Assembly: GCF_036588685.1 (NCBI RefSeq)
Contig: NC_086377.1
Coordinates: forward strand, 13,268,001 to 13,332,000
Length of the DNA stretch: 64,000 nt
Source of the DNA: Mytilus trossulus
Lineage: Eukaryota
Direction: 5' to 3'
Every line of letters begins with the position of its first letter. The first letter of the stretch is position 1. The translations under genes and the position numbers were made by a program. Of the stretch, positions 35,054 to 45,445 are shown piece by piece. The notes below the pieces were generated by a model that was given only the letters and a program-made list of their open reading frames with translations, was not told the origin of the DNA and did no database searches.

Positions 35054-36002
35054 CTAGAATAAAAAGCAAATCTTACTTACATGTATATAAAACGTTGCTT
35101 CAAGTTGTGAGGGGTAACACGGTGTTTTTATTTCTAATATCCCAACATTTTTCCCTTTATTTGAATTCCGCTTGTTCAACCCCGTATATCACACATCCCA
35201 AATGGATTGTATCTAAGCCCCCTCCCCCTGCTATCTCATATTAAAAAAAGTGTCATCCCCCTCTATTGTGTGTATATATTCCAATAGCGATATATGTATG
35301 TACCACGTCTTTTGTCAGGCATTACAAGGAGCATGTTTAAATATAGGATCTTTGTTTTACAACCGACATGCCCTATGTATTATTTAAACTCCATATGTAC
35401 TCTTTGAAAGTAATTTGTTTTACCCAGCAGGCTTCATAAAAATAACCATGGAAGAATCAAATATAGACCTTGATTATTATTTTATGATAATGATGAAATT
35501 CAAGGTCATCATTTGACAAATGCAAACGTTCGTTTTAAGTAAACATAACTTCAGAAAACAACTTTTTTTTTTAAAGCGGCATTACATGTTGCAATAATAA
35601 ATAGTCAAATAAAACAATTTAACATGCAAAATAAATCCTGTATTTTCACTGCTTTGATATCTTATGTCCTGTATGTATATTCAATCGTCAATTTAATGAA
35701 AAGAATAACTTATCTGAAAATTGAAAAATCGAAACTGCACGACAAAACAACATTGTTTTAACAAAATGCTAAATGTGCTACGTGTATTTACAAAATAATT
35801 TGTTTTCAGTCACAGGTCTTATATTTTTTTACTATTTCTTTAAATATTTTGAAAACTATGTTTGGAGCATAGTTGGAAAATTGACAAAATCAGAGAAAAA
35901 ATATAATAAGAAAAACTGCTGAATTGCAAAACTAAATATTAAACATAAAAACTACATGTATCTAACATTTTAGTTAACCTTAACTAAAGTTGAACCACTC
36001 AC

Positions 36003-36095
36003 CTTGGTTGTTTGGAGATACAGTAATGTCAGATAACTTTGTTTATCTTTTTATATCATAGGCTATAGGTGGTGAATCCCGAGGTATTCCACGTG
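36003..36095 (-). promoter_or_regulatory. Paralogue B core promoter and short non-coding first exon
   Basis: TATAAAAA at 36055-36048, donor AAG|GTGAGT at 36002, CACGTG E-box at 36090-36095; the ATG at 35053 directly follows an acceptor AG. Confidence 0.6.
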
Positions 36096-36183
36096 GTTCA
36101 AAAATTCGATTACTAGTAGTTAATATTGTCATAGATTATGGACAATGTTATGTAATGTTTAAACAATGGTTTGAGTAGATGAT

Positions 36184-36359
36184 AATTTGAACTGTACTAT
36201 CAGAAAGGCTATATAAAACTGAAGTCTGTGCTGGCATTCAAAGGTGGTGTTTAATAAATCAAATGCAAATACGCATACAAAATATAAATATGCAAACACG
36301 CATAAAGAAACAATGTTATTTCACCAATTGTCATATAAAAAATGAACACCACAATTACC
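36184..36359 (-). repeat. Split direct repeat B2 (176 bp)
   Basis: Identical by eye to 36661-36836 (offset 477). Confidence 0.95.
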
Positions 36360-36525
36360 TATAAAGGTAAAATAATTTTAAATTTATACAACAAAAAAAT
36401 AATACAAAAAAAAATATTGCAAACAACATTTCACTAAAGTTGCAAGCTAAATCATGTCGAGAAAAAAAATTTCAACATAATGCATATGAAATAAGACAAT
36501 AATTCTGATAGGGTGGGCGGGAGGG

Positions 36526-36836
36526 ATAAAAACGTGGTTTCAAATTGGATCGATAATTGATGTGCTAAACATATCTCTTTTAGGAAAGAGCTATATTGGT
36601 GAATCTAAAACATGGAGTACGCCCCGACAAATTAAACAAAATGACTAGCCATTTTTAACCAATTTGAACTGTACTATCAGAAAGGCTATATAAAACTGAA
36701 GTCTGTGCTGGCATTCAAAGGTGGTGTTTAATAAATCAAATGCAAATACGCATACAAAATATAAATATGCAAACACGCATAAAGAAACAATGTTATTTCA
36801 CCAATTGTCATATAAAAAATGAACACCACAATTACC
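36526..36836 (-). repeat. Internal B1-A2 junction of the split direct repeats
   Basis: A2 36526-36664 equals 40984-41122; B1 36661-36836 equals 36184-36359; the two overlap at AATT 36661-36664. Confidence 0.95.
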
Positions 36837-36900
36837 AAGGCAACGCAATGCCAAGCACAGAAATCAGAGGGAAGGACAAAATAATTATCATGGATGTTTA

Positions 36901-37895
36901 TCAGTTGGAAAGTTTGCAAAAAAGTCCCATCTTGCTTGAAATGTAATAAAGTTTGTCAGTAGAGTGTTTGATGTAGCCCTTGTAGCAAGAGGAAGTCCAA
37001 TTGCCTATTGTACAAATTTCTGAGTCTGAGCATCCAGCAGCTGATGCACAAGTTGCACCGCCTCTACGCAAGCTGTGAAACGAGTATTGTGAAGTGTCTA
37101 TTCCACAACGCACTAAGAGTTTGTGAAGAATTTTGTCTATGTCTGACTTTGAAAAGGCACAAATCTTTCCCTTACTATCACTAAGACCAAAAGCGGGTTC
37201 TCCTGGTAGTGCAGGCAACATTGTTACCATTCTAGAATAAGCCAGTACCGGGCATAGAGTACAATCCTCGACTCTTTTAAGAGGAATCTGGTGAATATTT
37301 TTATGTTTTTGACTAGTTTTTGACCACTGTATATCGATAATTAATCCTTCCTCAGTAATTTGAATATCACCTCTGGTTAACTGCTCCTTAGGGTTAAACG
37401 TTGTCCTTGAATTGTTAGCGAATTGTGATTTTCTAAGCATAGCATAAAAGCTTATCATAATAACAGCCCACATCACAGCATCCTGTACACTTGTCATATC
37501 TAGGACTTCAAACATGCGGTTCAAATGATATGGTTCAAATGGTAATTTTATATTTGGAATATTAGTATTAAGCTTGTCAATACCTGACAAGGTTAGCCTG
37601 AGCGACGGTGAATTAAACTCCTCAGTATCAAAATTTAACAGAATGGCCCACGTTTTAACACCTGATAAGTAATTTCTAACGGATCCACTATTCTTAAAGT
37701 TATCTGACAAAAAACACACATATCCGCAGAGTGTCTCTTGATCAACAGGAAATGCTGATCTACAAAATTTTTCACAAAACAAAAGGTATGTATTTAGCTG
37801 AGTCCTCAAATTTTTAAAAGTTCCCGGTCTGAAGGCTGCTTTTAAAACTGTTCTTGCTTTCCGACGAAGTGATAGCCATTCGTCTGATCTGGTTT
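36901..37895 (-). CDS. Tyrosine recombinase (YR) of the Ngaro element; 5' end probably supplied by splicing
   Basis: Catalytic motifs AMLRKS (R), WSKT (K), HSLRRGGA (H-x-x-R), GNW, YKGY (Y). Frame open from 37920 with no N-terminal ATG; acceptor TTTCAG with AG at 37897-37896. Confidence 0.9.
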
Positions 37896-37901
37896 CTGAA
37901 A

Positions 37902-39830
37902 TTAAATTGAAAAGTCTAACTTAAATAATTTGTCCAGCACTTCAATATCTAACATACAATTGTCATCTAAAGCAGTTGACAGTTTTGCATAAGGGTTTTC
38001 AATTGATGTCCAACGCGACAAAATATCTGCTGCTCGATTGTTTATTCCTTGAATATGTATCGCTTTGATTTGAATGTTATATTGCGCACAAATTAACCAA
38101 ATGTTTCTTGCTATGCTAAGCATGATTTTATCACGACATCTACCTGTATTAAGTAGACTGACTGAAGATGAATTGTCACATTGCAACACAATACGTTTAT
38201 TTTGCAGTTTTTTACCCCACACTTTAAAACTGATCAGGACAGCCAAAAGTTCATAAACACTAATATGGTGGCCTGACCAAGATGTATGTATATCACTATG
38301 AAAGTACTCAGTGATGCCACTATTATAAAAAATACCACCTATTCCTGATAAAGACGCATCAGTTTGTATTAATTGGTCCGGTGTGGTCCAGATATGCTCT
38401 GGAATTGTGGTTTTTCCATTGAACCTTGTCATGAATTTTAAAAACCATTTCAAGTCTTTTTTGGCTTCGCCATTCAAATTAATATGATGACCTTTGCGTG
38501 ATACAGTTCTGAGTAGAGCAAGCAAGCGTGCAATGAATAACCTTGCAGATCTAATACAATCAGCTATGTAGGACAACTTTCCAATAATTGATTCAAGCTT
38601 TTTTCTTGTGATAGTTTTCTTAGTCAATAATTTCTCAATAACTCCTTTTATTTCACATAATTTGTCCATGGGAATAGAAATTGTCATATTTACAGTGTCA
38701 AATTGTTTTCCAAGAAATACCATATTTGTGTTGGGTGCACAACATTTTTGCTCTGCAACTTTAAAACCAAGATCATCAATTAAATTTTTGAGAATGTGAA
38801 AACCATTCCCCGCAAATTCTGTCGTTTCAGCTGAACCTATATCATCAATATAGTTAACACCATTGTAACCCATGTTTCTGTACATGTACATTATAGCATT
38901 TGTGGTCCTTTGTGCTGCCATAGCCCCTGTACGCAAACCGAAGGGAATTTTAGTGTCAAAGTATAACTGGTCATTCCAGACTAGTCCTAATAAATGATAA
39001 TCATAGGGATCAACCGGTAACCAACGGTAACATCTCTTTATGTCCACTTTGTACAATAGACAGTTGGGACCCTTTTCGTTTATAAGCTGTACTAAGTGAT
39101 CAGTGGCAGGGTAGTGTAATGTGAATGGGTCACCCATGTAAGTATGTTTTGGTATGCCATCATTGACTGAAGTACCTATGGGAAAGGACAAGTCCATGAT
39201 AGTTCTTCTCTCTATTGTATCTTTTTTGGGAACAGAAGACAAAGGTGAGGTAGCTAAAGGAACTTGAAAAGGGTTGACCTTAAAAGGGCCAACTAAAGCA
39301 TTATATGATAATTCTTTGTTTATGTATTCGTCTATGTGCTCACTAAAAAACAATGCTGACTTGTGATTTCTAACAATAGTCTCTGGAAATTCATGTTTGC
39401 TATAGCCAACAGGCCAACCAAATTCTAAAAAATCAACAATTTTATAGTCATGATAACCATCTAACAATTTTCTCCATATAGGAATGTTCATTGTTGAAGG
39501 AACATGTATTTGTGATCCAATATAATTTGGAACCCCTGATTTAAAAACAATATCATGAAGAACAACAGGATTTTGACACACCTGATTAATATCATCATTA
39601 ACATTATTATCTACCAGTGTAAAGTCATTTACAATTTTTCTACATGTACGATCTACACAAGTACCAATAACAGTACTTTTAAAAAATTTATCTACATTTG
39701 ATCTGCTTTGAAATTTTGAAGGCATAATAAATGGTTTTGATTTTACATTGATTTCATTATGTGTGTAAGAATTGTCAGTTTGTGTTGATACATCAATAGT
39801 TATAGCTGAATTACCACATACTTTTCCTAG
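37902..39830 (-). CDS. Reverse transcriptase-RNase H (pol) of the Ngaro element
   Basis: KVDIKRCY, PFGLRTG, NYIDD, FLG; RNase H TDAS, ELLA, CDN, NRAADILSR. First ATG at 39725, but the frame is open back to the gag stop at 39831. Confidence 0.95.
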   Translation of the reverse strand, partial: LGKVCGNSAITIDVSTQTDNSYTHNEINVKSKPFIMPSKFQSRSNVDKFFKSTVIGTCVDRTCRKIVNDFTLVDNNVNDDINQVCQNPVVLHDIVFKSGVPNYIGSQIHVPSTMNIPIWRKLLDGYHDYKIVDFLEFGWPVGYSKHEFPETIVRNHKSALFFSEHIDEYINKELSYNALVGPFKVNPFQVPLATSPLSSVPKKDTIERRTIMDLSFPIGTSVNDGIPKHTYMGDPFTLHYPATDHLVQLINEKGPNCLLYKVDIKRCYRWLPVDPYDYHLLGLVWNDQLYFDTKIPFGLRTGAMAAQRTTNAIMYMYRNMGYNGVNYIDDIGSAETTEFAGNGFHILKNLIDDLGFKVAEQKCCAPNTNMVFLGKQFDTVNMTISIPMDKLCEIKGVIEKLLTKKTITRKKLESIIGKLSYIADCIRSARLFIARLLALLRTVSRKGHHINLNGEAKKDLKWFLKFMTRFNGKTTIPEHIWTTPDQLIQTDASLSGIGGIFYNSGITEYFHSDIHTSWSGHHISVYELLAVLISFKVWGKKLQNKRIVLQCDNSSSVSLLNTGRCRDKIMLSIARNIWLICAQYNIQIKAIHIQGINNRAADILSRWTSIENPYAKLSTALDDNCMLDIEVLDKLFKLDFSI

Positions 39831-40985
39831 TCATCTGTGTGCAGGAAAGTCATGTTGCCAATTTTGGACATAGTCTGAACCTCGACCTCGACCTGCATTA
39901 CCCTGGAACTGTTTTTGACTTTGACAGTCTTTAGCAGCATGATTCATTATAGTTTTTCGTTTAATCCAGCATGAACTACAGAAATGTTCCTCCAATAAAC
40001 CCAGAGTATTTTTGTGTAATTCTTTTTTGTTGCATGAACCTTTGTTGTAAGCTGAACAATAAAACCTAGGGTGAGACTGATGCAAGCGACGTGCTTTGCA
40101 AAATTCAAAATTGTCATTCCATGAAGCACGACCAGTTTCTATTTCTCGTAGTACATCTTTGTGAAATGCAAGCACATCAGACCATATAAATTGTTCACTA
40201 TAAAACATAAGCTGTGTCAGATGTTCAGCACGTTTGTCTCTATATTCTGCGGGTTCAATATTATGTATAATGTAATTTTCTCCTCTGACAAGAGCAGGCA
40301 TACTTAAGGACATGAATTCGATATCGTCACTCCCGGCAAACTCATGAGGCCATGCGATATGAAAAATTGCCTTATCACTAGATTTTCTAGATGAACCAGA
40401 TTTTGAAAGGTTTTTATTCTTTTTGAGTTTGAATTTAGGATAGTTAAGTGTTTTGAATGTTTGTGTGAAATGAATCTCACCTTCTGATTCTGTATCACTA
40501 TCGGAATCATCAGATATGAATAATTTGCTCACTAATCCTTTCTGTTTTTCTGTTATTTTCTGTTTCAAGTCTTCGTCTTTTCTCAAGGATTTTAAATCAA
40601 TTTTGTTAGTTTGGTCCTGTTTTTGTTTCACGTTAAAGTCCGTTTGCTTAAGTTTCTTTTTCAGAGTTTTGTTCTTTTCGACAAGTTCACGCAATTTAAT
40701 TTCTTCTAAAAGTTTTTCATTCTCTTGCTCTAGAGCTGACAAAGTCTCGTCAAGGCTTTGTTTCGGGGTTTTGGGTACATTACCCGCCATGGTTTCCAGC
40801 GCGCCATTTTCACTTTTATCGGGGGTGGAAGAAAGATTTTCTACAGACATAGCATTAGCACCCTGTCCCTGATTACGTGTATCAAAAGAAAAGTCATAAG
40901 ATATGTTCTTTGGACATCTGATCCCCGTTGGTCCTCTATGATCAACAACTTTGGTCCCACAAAAGCTACAAATCCTTTGGGACAT
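39831..40985 (-). CDS. Gag-like ORF1 of the Ngaro element (384 aa)
   Basis: N-terminal CxxC-x6-H-x7-C, coiled coil, acidic patch, C-terminal C..YNKG.C...H / H.CSSC...H....C zinc-finger cluster and RG-rich tail; the ATG overlaps the end of repeat A1. Confidence 0.85.
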   Translation of the reverse strand: MSQRICSFCGTKVVDHRGPTGIRCPKNISYDFSFDTRNQGQGANAMSVENLSSTPDKSENGALETMAGNVPKTPKQSLDETLSALEQENEKLLEEIKLRELVEKNKTLKKKLKQTDFNVKQKQDQTNKIDLKSLRKDEDLKQKITEKQKGLVSKLFISDDSDSDTESEGEIHFTQTFKTLNYPKFKLKKNKNLSKSGSSRKSSDKAIFHIAWPHEFAGSDDIEFMSLSMPALVRGENYIIHNIEPAEYRDKRAEHLTQLMFYSEQFIWSDVLAFHKDVLREIETGRASWNDNFEFCKARRLHQSHPRFYCSAYNKGSCNKKELHKNTLGLLEEHFCSSCWIKRKTIMNHAAKDCQSQKQFQGNAGRGRGSDYVQNWQHDFPAHR

Positions 40986-41122
40986 AAAAACGTGGTTTCA
41001 AATTGGATCGATAATTGATGTGCTAAACATATCTCTTTTAGGAAAGAGCTATATTGGTGAATCTAAAACATGGAGTACGCCCCGACAAATTAAACAAAAT
41101 GACTAGCCATTTTTAACCAATT
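40984..41122 (-). repeat. Split direct repeat A1 (139 bp), 5' end of the element
   Basis: Identical by eye to 36526-36664 (offset 4458). Confidence 0.95.
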
Positions 41123-41462
41123 CACTTTTTTTCGTTCGAAAATTAGAGTGTACTATATTGTACTTATTTGTTGTACTGTGGTTTTATATTTGTTTATGCC
41201 CGATTTTTTCACCAGTACCGTATACTATCTTGTCAATCCATTGTTCTGGAAGATCATATAGTCATTACATATATAAAAAAAGAAGATGTGGTATGATTGC
41301 CAATGAGACAACTATCCACAAAAGACCAAAATGAAACAAACATCAAACCATATAGGTCACCGTACGGCCTTCAACAATGAGCAAAGCCCATACCGCATAG
41401 TCAGCTATAAAAGGCCCGATAAGACAATGTAAAACAGTTCAAACAAGAGAACTAACGGCCTT

Positions 41463-42536
41463 CCCAGATAGCAATACTTTGTTTGGCCAACATTGGTGAT
41501 TAGTTGGCACAGTTGGTAAACAGTTGGCGTTGGAAGGACAACAAGAGACCAGCGTTGGTCCAACAACATTGAGCCAACAGTTATTTTGACACTGTTGGCC
41601 CCTCGTTGGCCCAACAACTTAGCAGTTGGTGCGCACCAACTGTCATTTTTGTATGGTTGGCCAAATGTTGGCCCAACATTTTCTTACCAACTGTTATTTA
41701 AGTAGTTGGTCCAATGATATTTGACTTATGTCGTCCATTGGTTCAGTGTAAGATCTTCTGACTGAACCCACTGAACCAATTTTAAACAAACTCTATTTGA
41801 ATGCTCATTCTTAGGATATATTGCATGACAATATTGAAATATAAGCCAACATTGTGCCAACAATATGCCAACGTATTAAGTACTTATCTCCCCATTTTAT
41901 ACCACAGATTTTTTTAATTTTTTTTAAATATTATTCCAAAGTGCAAACAAAAAGATGTGCTCTTCGTTCTCTTTATCATATATTTTCAAATCTGTGTAGT
42001 CATCTAAATGTATTTATCTTAATGTTTGAATATTTTTTTGCGCAAATAAAAAATATTTAAAACCAGCCCAAACAAATAAATTAAATTTGAATATAGTTTC
42101 ATTGGAAAAATAACCTATATATTCTTCTGATGAATTGACACGAGTGGATTTCTCACTTTTCAAATGATAGGCGGTTGTATATTCTATATCAATATACAAT
42201 ACAGTATAGACCATAAAATACTGATTACTAAAATTATAATAAGGGAAGCTTATAAAACGTTGGCAAACTGTAGTACAACCAACAATGGCCCAACATAATT
42301 CCAAAACTAGACTACGTTGGTAGACTGTTGGCAAACAGTTAACATTGTTGGCAGATTGTTGGCAAATAGTTAACTTTGTTGGCATACTGATGTTGGCCCA
42401 ACAAAGACCCAACATGTTGGGCCAACGAAGGGCCGATGAGCAAAATGACGGTGGCCCAACATAGTTTTCCAACGTTGGCCCAACAATGTTGCCAACAAAA
42501 TGCCAACGTGGGCCCAACACATGTTTGCTATCTGGG
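41463..42536. mobile_element. Non-autonomous CMC/EnSpm-like DNA transposon nested in a SINE-like repeat
   Basis: CCCAGATAGCAA...TTGCTATCTGGG termini, 2-bp TT duplication, many subterminal GTTGG/CCAAC repeats; the host repeat resumes after 42538. Confidence 0.75.
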
Positions 42537-43924: not shown

Positions 43925-44399
43925 TAATCTGTATTTTAAAGTGTAGATTTTTGCGGATTGCAGTATGTCTCTGCACCGTTTTTCATTAATTTGATCATAG
44001 ATCTTTTTAATTCCGCTTATGGCCTCCTTTATGATGCTTCAGTTTTTTGGTTTTTTTTTTTCAATTCTCACGCGACCATACCATACCATTCAATCCTATA
44101 TATTTGCATGAATGAAACTCTAACTATCTTAAATTGTTAATTCTACAATAATGTAGTTATCGTTTATTATAAATGGCCTTGATCCCCTCCTATACTTTTA
44201 TAATCATTCAATTTAAAAATATTTTATATTCAAAAATAACATTCAAATACTACACTGAAAAGTGTATTTGACATTTAGGAAGGGCAAAGTTATTTCTACG
44301 AGGCGAAATATACATAAATAATTTAATTTGCTCTCCCCTGATTTAGTCGGTCAATCCATTTCTGACGTACATTAGTTCTAGTTGGTATTTGGAAATAGG
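43925..44399. repeat. ~475-bp direct repeat, left copy (right copy 45446-45918)
   Basis: TAATCTGTATTTTAAAGTG...TTGGAAATAGG on both sides of the LINE fragment; about 5 substitutions plus a T-run difference. Confidence 0.92.
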
Positions 44400-45445
44400 C
44401 TTCTCAAATAAATTAGAAAATTTACAATTAGAGGCCGCAAGAATAGTAACAGGTCTACCAATATTTACAAAAACTGAAACTTTTTATTCTGAGGTTGGCT
44501 GGGAATCTCTTTTTGAAAGAAGAAGGAGAAGAAAATTACAGATGTTTTATAACATGAACCAAAAGCATGCACCAGAATATTTATGTAATCTTGTACCTCC
44601 TTGTGTACAAAGTACAACCAACTACCCGTTGCGAAATGGTCATGATATTATTGTTCCATTTTGTAGACTTTCTCTTACTACTGAATCGTTCATTCCCTCT
44701 ACCATACGTGAATGGAATAAACTTGATCCAAAAATTCGCAGTGTCGACTCTATTTCTAAATTTAAGAAAGAATTAAAAAACGATAGTCAAGTATGTAAAA
44801 TTGAAACGTTTTATTTGTACGGCCCAAGGAAATTAAATATTATCTTAACGCAATTGCGATGTTCCGCTTCATCCTTAAACAATGACCTATTTAGAGCTAA
44901 CATTATAAATGATCCTTCTTGTCATTGTGGGTCCAATATTGAGGATGTCTACCATTACTTCTTCGTTTGCCCAAAATACACATTATGTAGGAAAAACTTA
45001 TTCGATAACCTTAACTGGCTATCTGAAAACTTTGTTTTAGATACAAAACTATTAATTTGCGGACACTTGGAACTTTCGAACGAACAAAATATTCAAATTT
45101 TCAAACATGTTCAGAATTACATAAAAAGGTCAAACAGATTTCTTATGCCTTGATAGAGCGTTATTATTGCTGACACAGGACGTCATCGTTGTCATCAATC
45201 CACAAGTCATCATCACAGAAGTATACGATTTTTCAAACTTTCTTTTTCCTTTTTTCCTTTGTCTCCTCTTTGTTCACCTATGAAAGCTAGTATTATATTG
45301 TATAAACTGTTTGTTTTATATGCATGTCCATTATATTATACTGTTATTGTAACTTTATATTGTATTATGGAGAAGACTTCATAAGTATGATTTACTTGTG
45401 TCTAATCCATTTTGCCTTAATTCAGCAAATAAAATATGTTTAAAC
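44400..45445 (+). mobile_element. 5'-truncated non-LTR retrotransposon (CR1-like ORF2 C-terminus plus 3' UTR)
   Basis: Open frame to 45153: LE.LQLEAARIVTGLP, GWESL..RR, APEYL, SFIPST..EWN.L, C.CG..ED..HYFF.CP.Y; ends AATAAAATATGTTTAAAC. Confidence 0.88.

Follow-up and report, generated by a model that had tools for sequence, protein, structure and literature searches.

A conserved UGA-C stop codon as the probable readthrough signal between gag and pol of a Ngaro-type retrotransposon in Mytilus trossulus

The stretch of DNA analysed here (the window) comprises 64,000 nucleotides (nt) of contig NC_086377.1 of Mytilus trossulus, and carries on its minus strand a retrotransposon that encodes gag, a polymerase with reverse transcriptase (RT) as well as RNase H, and a tyrosine recombinase (YR). 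Gag and pol lie in one frame and are parted by a single TGA. On the basis of the conservation of this stop codon, and of the base that follows it, we consider it very probable that programmed readthrough of the UGA makes a Gag-Pol protein. Loci with L numbers and sequencing runs with X numbers are named by our own handles.

The junction reads CAC AGA TGA CTA GGA AAA, and the pol open reading frame (ORF) opens at the codon after the stop, in the frame of gag. Coordinates and frame confirm the preliminary description of this DNA, which had a single in-frame TGA between gag and pol and a fusion across it of 384+1+642 = 1027 amino acids (aa). By themselves, the 35 open codons that follow the stop are unremarkable, with a chance of 0.07 at the base composition of the element; the feature that exceeds chance is their conservation together with the stop. 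Nine genomic matches make up the set of close copies, one of which (L008) ends before the junction. TGACTAG is present in all seven near-identical copies (at least 98%) that span it, namely the window's own and six others, and a copy of 87% identity (L009) has TGA-CAA at the same place.

Conservation was scored over 121 loci: the window, 40 stretches of its own genome (14 of them refetched after their junctions had been seen) and, out of 276 metagenome loci, the best 80. Two had no match at the cut-off and eight were open to the contig edge, and the remaining 111 fall into 66 families at 70% RT identity. A junction was called in-frame where at least 100 open codons stand upstream of pol in the frame of pol, a criterion that is blind to the identity of the stop. 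TGA-C is found at the junction in 38 of the 40 in-frame families, compared with 3 of 67 stops at the pol and YR ends of the same elements (TAA 32, TGA 21, TAG 14); the Fisher p value of 6e-23 overstates the independence of the data, because the families are related. In the two exceptions, L040 (TAA) and L167 (TAG), the upstream frame is no intact gag end.

Beyond the C at +4, the preferred bases in these 40 families are T at +5 (28/40), A at +6 (23/40) and G at +7 (18/40), and the codon after the stop is most often CTA (16), followed by CAA (6), CTC (4), CTT (4) and CTG (3). Positions -9 to -3 and +8 to +12 are not conserved. The type II readthrough motif consists of UGA with CUA or CGG after it (PMC3159437), and basal readthrough in human cells is high at UGA CUA G (PMC4359377); here and below, papers are cited from those portions of their text that were available. 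The 16 families with UGA-CUA and one with UGA-CGG carry this motif, as does the window with UGA-CUA-G. The preliminary description had proposed UGA-CUA(G) as a leaky context: its TGA-C core stands across the families, but CUAG is only the commonest form and not invariant. As a check it had suggested looking in relatives for TGA-CTAG and the in-frame spacer being kept while the ATG is not. This pattern extends far past the close copies, to families below 70% RT identity. A sense codon in place of the stop, which would have spoken for a defect of one copy, is not what the seven close copies and the 38 families have.

The metagenome set was not selected on the junction. In it, TGA-C is the first stop in frame on the upstream side of RT in 60/72 loci and 36/44 families, against a background in those loci of 23% for C after any TGA. 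A profile made from eight upstream ORFs (the window's included) matches 30 of 33 other upstream ORFs and none of them reversed, and in these 30 of the 33 test families the upstream ORF is judged by this match to be homologous to gag. In a second deep clade, whose pol is about 28% identical to that of the window, an in-frame TGA-C is present in 29/30 loci; named relatives of this clade come from Saccostrea, Pecten and Patella.

The position of the first methionine of pol points in the same direction. Its place varies among families between codons 3 and 363. Within the window's clade it lies beyond the conserved start of pol in 21 of 36 families, and an own-ATG start is impossible there, since the first Met follows conserved pol residues. 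It lies past query position 213 in 11/40 families and past the YxDD motif in 2/40, and in the second clade it comes after the conserved pol start in 8/12 families. Pol cannot generally begin at its own ATG. The preliminary description had named such a start as an alternative; it fails for those relatives, and in the window family the first ATG does precede the conserved start.

We therefore propose the following scheme. Most ribosomes would stop at TGA-C and release Gag, and a few would insert an amino acid at the UGA, giving the Gag-Pol fusion at a low rate, with a corresponding Gag:Pol ratio. The signal would consist of the stop and the next bases (type II, UGA-CUA-like), no 3' RNA structure having been detected. 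Ngaro-type elements encode no protease (PMC3783388), so the fusion would remain whole, and RT and RNase H would stay attached to the RNA-binding fingers of Gag, whose C-terminus has Cys/His zinc-finger-like motifs.

The recombinase ORF has no start codon of its own in a suitable place, and appears to be reached by splicing. None of the sequencing runs is recorded as RNA; 18 were guessed to be RNA, and four were aligned (three guessed RNA, one unknown). Their contigs are sparse, of low depth and patchy in cover, and gaps in them are uninformative. A contig of run X3 (one of the four runs) has a GT-AG joint from 40481 to 37895 on the minus strand, removing an intron of 2585 nt and placing the start-less recombinase ORF in frame behind 168 codons and 1 nt of gag. 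Another X3 contig (39711-40147) crosses the gag stop unspliced. No splice joint into pol was seen among the four runs, though with contigs so sparse its absence cannot be shown. A phase-1 acceptor-like site near the start of YR is present in 30/30 families (without shuffle control). Strong phase-1 acceptors (at least 12/16 pyrimidines) are found at the recombinase in 15/30 and in the spacers between stop and pol in 3/36. No conserved splice acceptor was found at the gag stop among the families scored: AG occurs at +6/+7 in 10/40, and pyrimidines make up a share of 0.49 ahead of the stop. Donor-like words in gag show a phase-1 excess (33/37), which follows in part from the reading frame and is given no weight here. 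On this evidence the element uses splicing for YR and gives no sign of using it for Pol, although the window spacer contains one weak in-phase site. A contig of run X2 leaves the element exactly at the donor, 40481, and continues into 255 nt of unrelated sequence, possibly a splice into the host.

The GT-AG splice from mid-gag to the recombinase ORF would yield a third protein, Gag(1-168)-YR, of 499 aa, and because it leaves from mid-gag all three proteins would share the N-terminus of Gag. A heptad-like segment at about gag residues 98-125, with similar segments upstream of the donor region in most gag ORFs (both from a crude score without control), could let the three proteins co-assemble.

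Several observations weigh against readthrough. No RNA structure was detected: no 3' stem-loop was found in 12 families at 60, 120 and 200 nt, and over 48 families the mean folding z was +0.16 at 90 nt and +0.23 at 150 nt, with 3/48 and 1/48 families below z -2 as against 4/48 in a control region (the search ranged up to 200 nt, pseudoknots not included). A synonymous-site peak after the stop was likewise not seen in 12 families (first bin 0.41, elsewhere 0.41-0.53). A 3' structure usually accompanies type II sites, although it is not ubiquitous (PMC3159437). Eight of the 44 metagenome families are without TGA-C. The sister family of the window (L081-L084, L086, L087; L040) reads CAA TGA TGT at its in-frame gag stop; the copies of it that were seen are all internally deleted or frameshifted. 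The RNA status of the runs is a guess. The main caution comes from Tca2 of Candida, in which the in-frame UGA of gag gave no readthrough in a yeast reporter (PMC2194720).

For Tca2 a bypass other than readthrough has been argued (PMC2194720), and ribosomes might here, too, terminate at the gag stop and restart nearby, by termination-reinitiation or another bypass, to make a separate Pol. Reinitiation is plausible in this lineage because one related family (L106/L111/L113/L140/L173, seen at L111:1253) has a TGATG stop-start overlap with its ATG in the pol frame, a further point against readthrough; its place inside the readthrough clade suggests a switch to termination-reinitiation. As an account of the window element we nevertheless hold it to be unlikely, in that reinitiation requires neither a common frame nor a leaky C at +4, the codon after the stop is variable and seldom near-start, and the next ATG is within conserved pol in 21/36 families. 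Quite unlikely, in our judgement, is a Pol that starts at its own ATG on a transcript shortened by an internal promoter, or one translated from RNA in which splicing has removed the stop. The element does splice, and Tca2 has a minor promoter at the junction (PMC2194720). In the window family, moreover, ATG 39725 is codon 36, upstream of the conserved pol start at codon 98, and the case against an own-ATG start is there made by homology; the spacer also holds a weak in-phase acceptor at 39806 (10/16 pyrimidines) in the phase of the gag donor. However, a Pol begun at its own ATG would lose conserved RT residues in the 21 families noted above, the acceptor counts and the bases around the stop speak against a splice that skips it, and neither route explains TGA-C.

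The remaining rivals concern the codon itself. A stop that is UGA in 38/40 families would suit recoding by selenocysteine insertion, or A-to-I editing to a Trp codon. We regard this as very unlikely: a search of 35500-41500 for a selenocysteine insertion sequence (SECIS) or other RNA family gave no Rfam match at E<=1, no 3' structure was detected, and in X3, with its one low-depth contig over the stop, the plus strand has no T>C change. In this genome several relatives that bear a methyltransferase carry gag and pol fused as one ORF, and the TGA might by analogy be a nonsense change that interrupts such an ORF in this copy or its family. That reading is refuted, since the same stop recurs in the close copies and, at the corresponding position behind the zinc fingers, in dozens of families; as a mutation of this copy alone it is excluded, because all seven close copies share it. 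Readthrough of UGA-C is thus the explanation that we prefer.

The phylogeny of the junctions was examined with a tree rooted on methyltransferase-bearing elements as outgroup; an unrooted run gives the same three groups. Readthrough-type junctions form two clades of 43 and 12 rows, both well supported; the smaller one is sister to a clade of nine rows with overlapping or separated ORFs. A single clade for all readthrough families was rejected by the approximately unbiased (AU) test (p 0.0175), in a quick LG+G4 tree with a long-branch warning and with the group named after the trees had been seen. Since the single clade is rejected, the arrangement would either be ancestral with several losses or have arisen twice. 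The 14 methyltransferase-associated outgroup loci fetched have fused or overlapping gag-pol where readable (one is without a long ORF), and no in-frame gag/pol stop was found in the readable ones. Seven methyltransferase-bearing YR elements (L217, L218, L220, L221, L222, L224, L225) have a single ORF of 880-952 codons, apparently a fusion of gag and pol, and no other gag upstream of it. Other loci have gag overlapping pol in the -1 frame (L242; L047, L051, L052, L056, L074); they comprise a complete sister clade, plus a family that sits inside the readthrough group.

Four mussel families have, in the spacer just past the leaky stop, a PAM2-like motif (L064:4607-4756(-), L062:2746-2895, L042:2782-2931 and L065:2815-2964), which in L064 and L042 precedes the first Met. 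The Pfam PAM2 matches are below the cut-off (E 0.014 and 0.087). A PAM2-like pattern occurs in 3/40 spacers and in none of 36,455 other residues, the pattern having been drawn from the same sequences. It had 0 matches in 120 database pol proteins, which start at the called start codon and may omit the spacer. A predicted complex of the L064 peptide with the host MLLE domain scored 0.35, compared with 0.02 for the best control, with a predicted local distance difference test score (pLDDT) of about 60 for the partner and 91% of contacts agreeing between runs. In the calibration of these predictions, passes at or below 0.60 comprised 5/78 solved pairs and all four mismatches that passed. Because PAM2-MLLE complexes are textbook examples, the prediction may reflect memory; it lends weak support to binding of the L064 spacer to the host MLLE domain. 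For the window family we make no claim of PAM2, since Pfam PAM2 gave no match on its spacer and the residues of a weak look-alike there are changed in two close copies. Exon copies of MLLE, the C-terminal domain of poly(A)-binding protein, are clustered at two places in the genome (G000 C11 7.76-7.86 Mb and C35 0.79-0.89 Mb; L090-L094).

These observations allow a wider scheme, which we offer tentatively and hold to be somewhat less likely than not. UGA-C readthrough would be the ancestral and prevailing route to Pol in methyltransferase-less YR retrotransposons of invertebrates, with one RNA giving Gag, Gag-Pol and Gag-YR; in a mussel sub-lineage the extension made by readthrough would open with PAM2, which might grip the poly(A)-binding protein of the host and so tie the polymerase to its own RNA.

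The features of the element are listed in Table 1. The pol ORF has a match to RVT_1 above the cut-off (E 8e-8) and an RNase H match below it. The recombinase ORF matches Phage_integrase below the cut-off (E 0.006), with its catalytic motif visible. The order of gag-like ORF, RT/RNase H and tyrosine recombinase on one strand is that of Ngaro, and the element has split direct repeats (A1...B1 A2...B2, with B1, A2 and B2 downstream of YR). Such repeats are found in 5/5 own-genome relatives tested, and were not seen in two metagenome contigs. No methyltransferase (Dam) was matched in the window element at E<=0.1; the methyltransferase after RNase H that marks PAT-like and DIRS1-like elements is absent, and in the RT tree the element falls outside the methyltransferase-bearing elements of this genome. 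Split direct repeats without a methyltransferase are defining for Ngaro (PMC9210276, PMC4157794). We take the window element to be a Ngaro-type tyrosine-recombinase retrotransposon, a class assigned from its structure and not from RT grouping with named references. An ORF for SGNH hydrolase after YR, which is optional in Ngaro, is not among the ORFs of the window element; in relatives, 6/7 fourth ORFs match Lipase_GDSL_2. Among named proteins the closest come from Mytilus (96% and 93%), followed by Glandiceps, Branchiostoma and Actinostola (42-46%). No relative was found in viral contigs. Since the repeat pairs are identical and three frames are open, the sequence points to a recent insertion.

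Table 1. Features of the retrotransposon, in window coordinates
Feature	Position	Strand	Remarks
5' terminal repeat A1	40984..41122	-	139 nt, 100% identical to A2
gag ORF	39831..40985	-	from ATG 40985, 384 aa; stop-to-stop 40997-39831
Splice donor AAG/GTGAGA within gag	40475..40483	-	exon end 40481, after 168 codons + 1 nt
gag stop TGA (39833-39831) + CTAG, candidate leaky stop	39827..39833	-	
Spacer, 35 open codons from stop to first pol ATG (39725), gag/pol frame	39726..39830	-	
pol ORF, 642 codons, RT + RNase H	37902..39830	-	
Splice acceptor ...tttcag/AAACC at 37896/37895	37890..37920	-	in phase with recombinase ORF
Tyrosine recombinase ORF	36901..37920	-	339 codons stop to stop; first Met deep inside; HSLRRGG...Y motif
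Internal repeat B1	36661..36836	-	176 nt, 100% identical to B2
Internal repeat A2	36526..36664	-	139 nt, adjoins B1
3' terminal repeat B2	36184..36359	-	176 nt

The element thus resembles the Ngaro elements of Xenopus (DIRS-53_XT) and Cafeteria (PMC9210276, PMC8547959, PMC3783388) in its A1...B1 A2 B2 repeats, its order of gag, RT-RNase H and YR, and its lack of a methyltransferase. Many of its relatives also have the SGNH hydrolase ORF, which the window family is without. Unlike those of the Xenopus Ngaro, in which all ORFs overlap (PMC9210276), its gag and pol share a frame and are parted by a leaky-type stop. The split direct repeats are shared with PAT of Panagrellus redivivus, a PAT-like YR element. 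The 1992 paper on the PAT sequence reportedly has ORF1 and ORF2 in one frame and suggests readthrough. PAT-like elements, unlike the window element, bear a methyltransferase (PMC4157794).

The junction shares with type II sites, such as the opal codon of alphavirus nsP3/4, tobraviruses and human AQP4 and LDHB (PMC3159437, PMC4359377, PMC13517186), a UGA followed by CUA or C before a polymerase or extension. It differs from them in lying in a retrotransposon, in having no detected 3' stem-loop, and in that only the C at +4 is nearly invariant. An in-frame stop between gag and pol, dosing Pol, is found also in murine leukaemia virus (MuLV) and Tca2, and MuLV is known to use gag-pol readthrough, which has been proposed for some long terminal repeat (LTR) elements as well (PMC2194720). 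MuLV, however, is a retrovirus with UAG, a purine spacer and a pseudoknot. The gammaretroviral type III signal, UAG-G with a compact pseudoknot, is not present at the window's gag/pol junction, where the stop is UGA-C and pseudoknot-free folding gave no signal. Tca2 is an LTR element whose flanks gave no readthrough in yeast (PMC2194720), and, in contrast to both, the present elements have no protease or integrase.

We found no published description of readthrough in Ngaro or DIRS elements, in a search that did not extend to the founding Ngaro papers and in which a passing mention may have been missed. The available portions of PMC9210276, PMC8547959 and PMC3783388 do not mention readthrough or a gag-YR splice in Ngaro, those of PMC8547959, PMC3783388, PMC6681497, PMC7192593 and bioRxiv 10.1101/2021.04.08.439009 contain nothing on gag-pol translation, and a 2026 review of viral readthrough does not, in its accessible text, mention retrotransposons (PMC13517186). 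The same literature, as far as its available text goes, leaves the expression of an RT and a recombinase that are often start-less, in elements of DIRS order, without explanation. The scheme proposed here, in which Pol would come from a leaky stop and the recombinase from a splice, is specific and testable, with conservation over some fifty families behind it. For the study of invertebrate readthrough, the junctions also offer a large set of natural UGA-C contexts that apparently have no RNA structure. For annotation, an in-frame TGA-C at the gag/pol junction should not count as the mark of a dead copy, and databases probably contain truncated pol proteins where the first ATG was taken as the start.

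It is worth adding that elsewhere in the window, at 44347-45153 on the plus strand, there is an ORF of 268 codons with a weak zf-RVT match (E 0.011), which is probably the 3' part of a long interspersed nuclear element (LINE).

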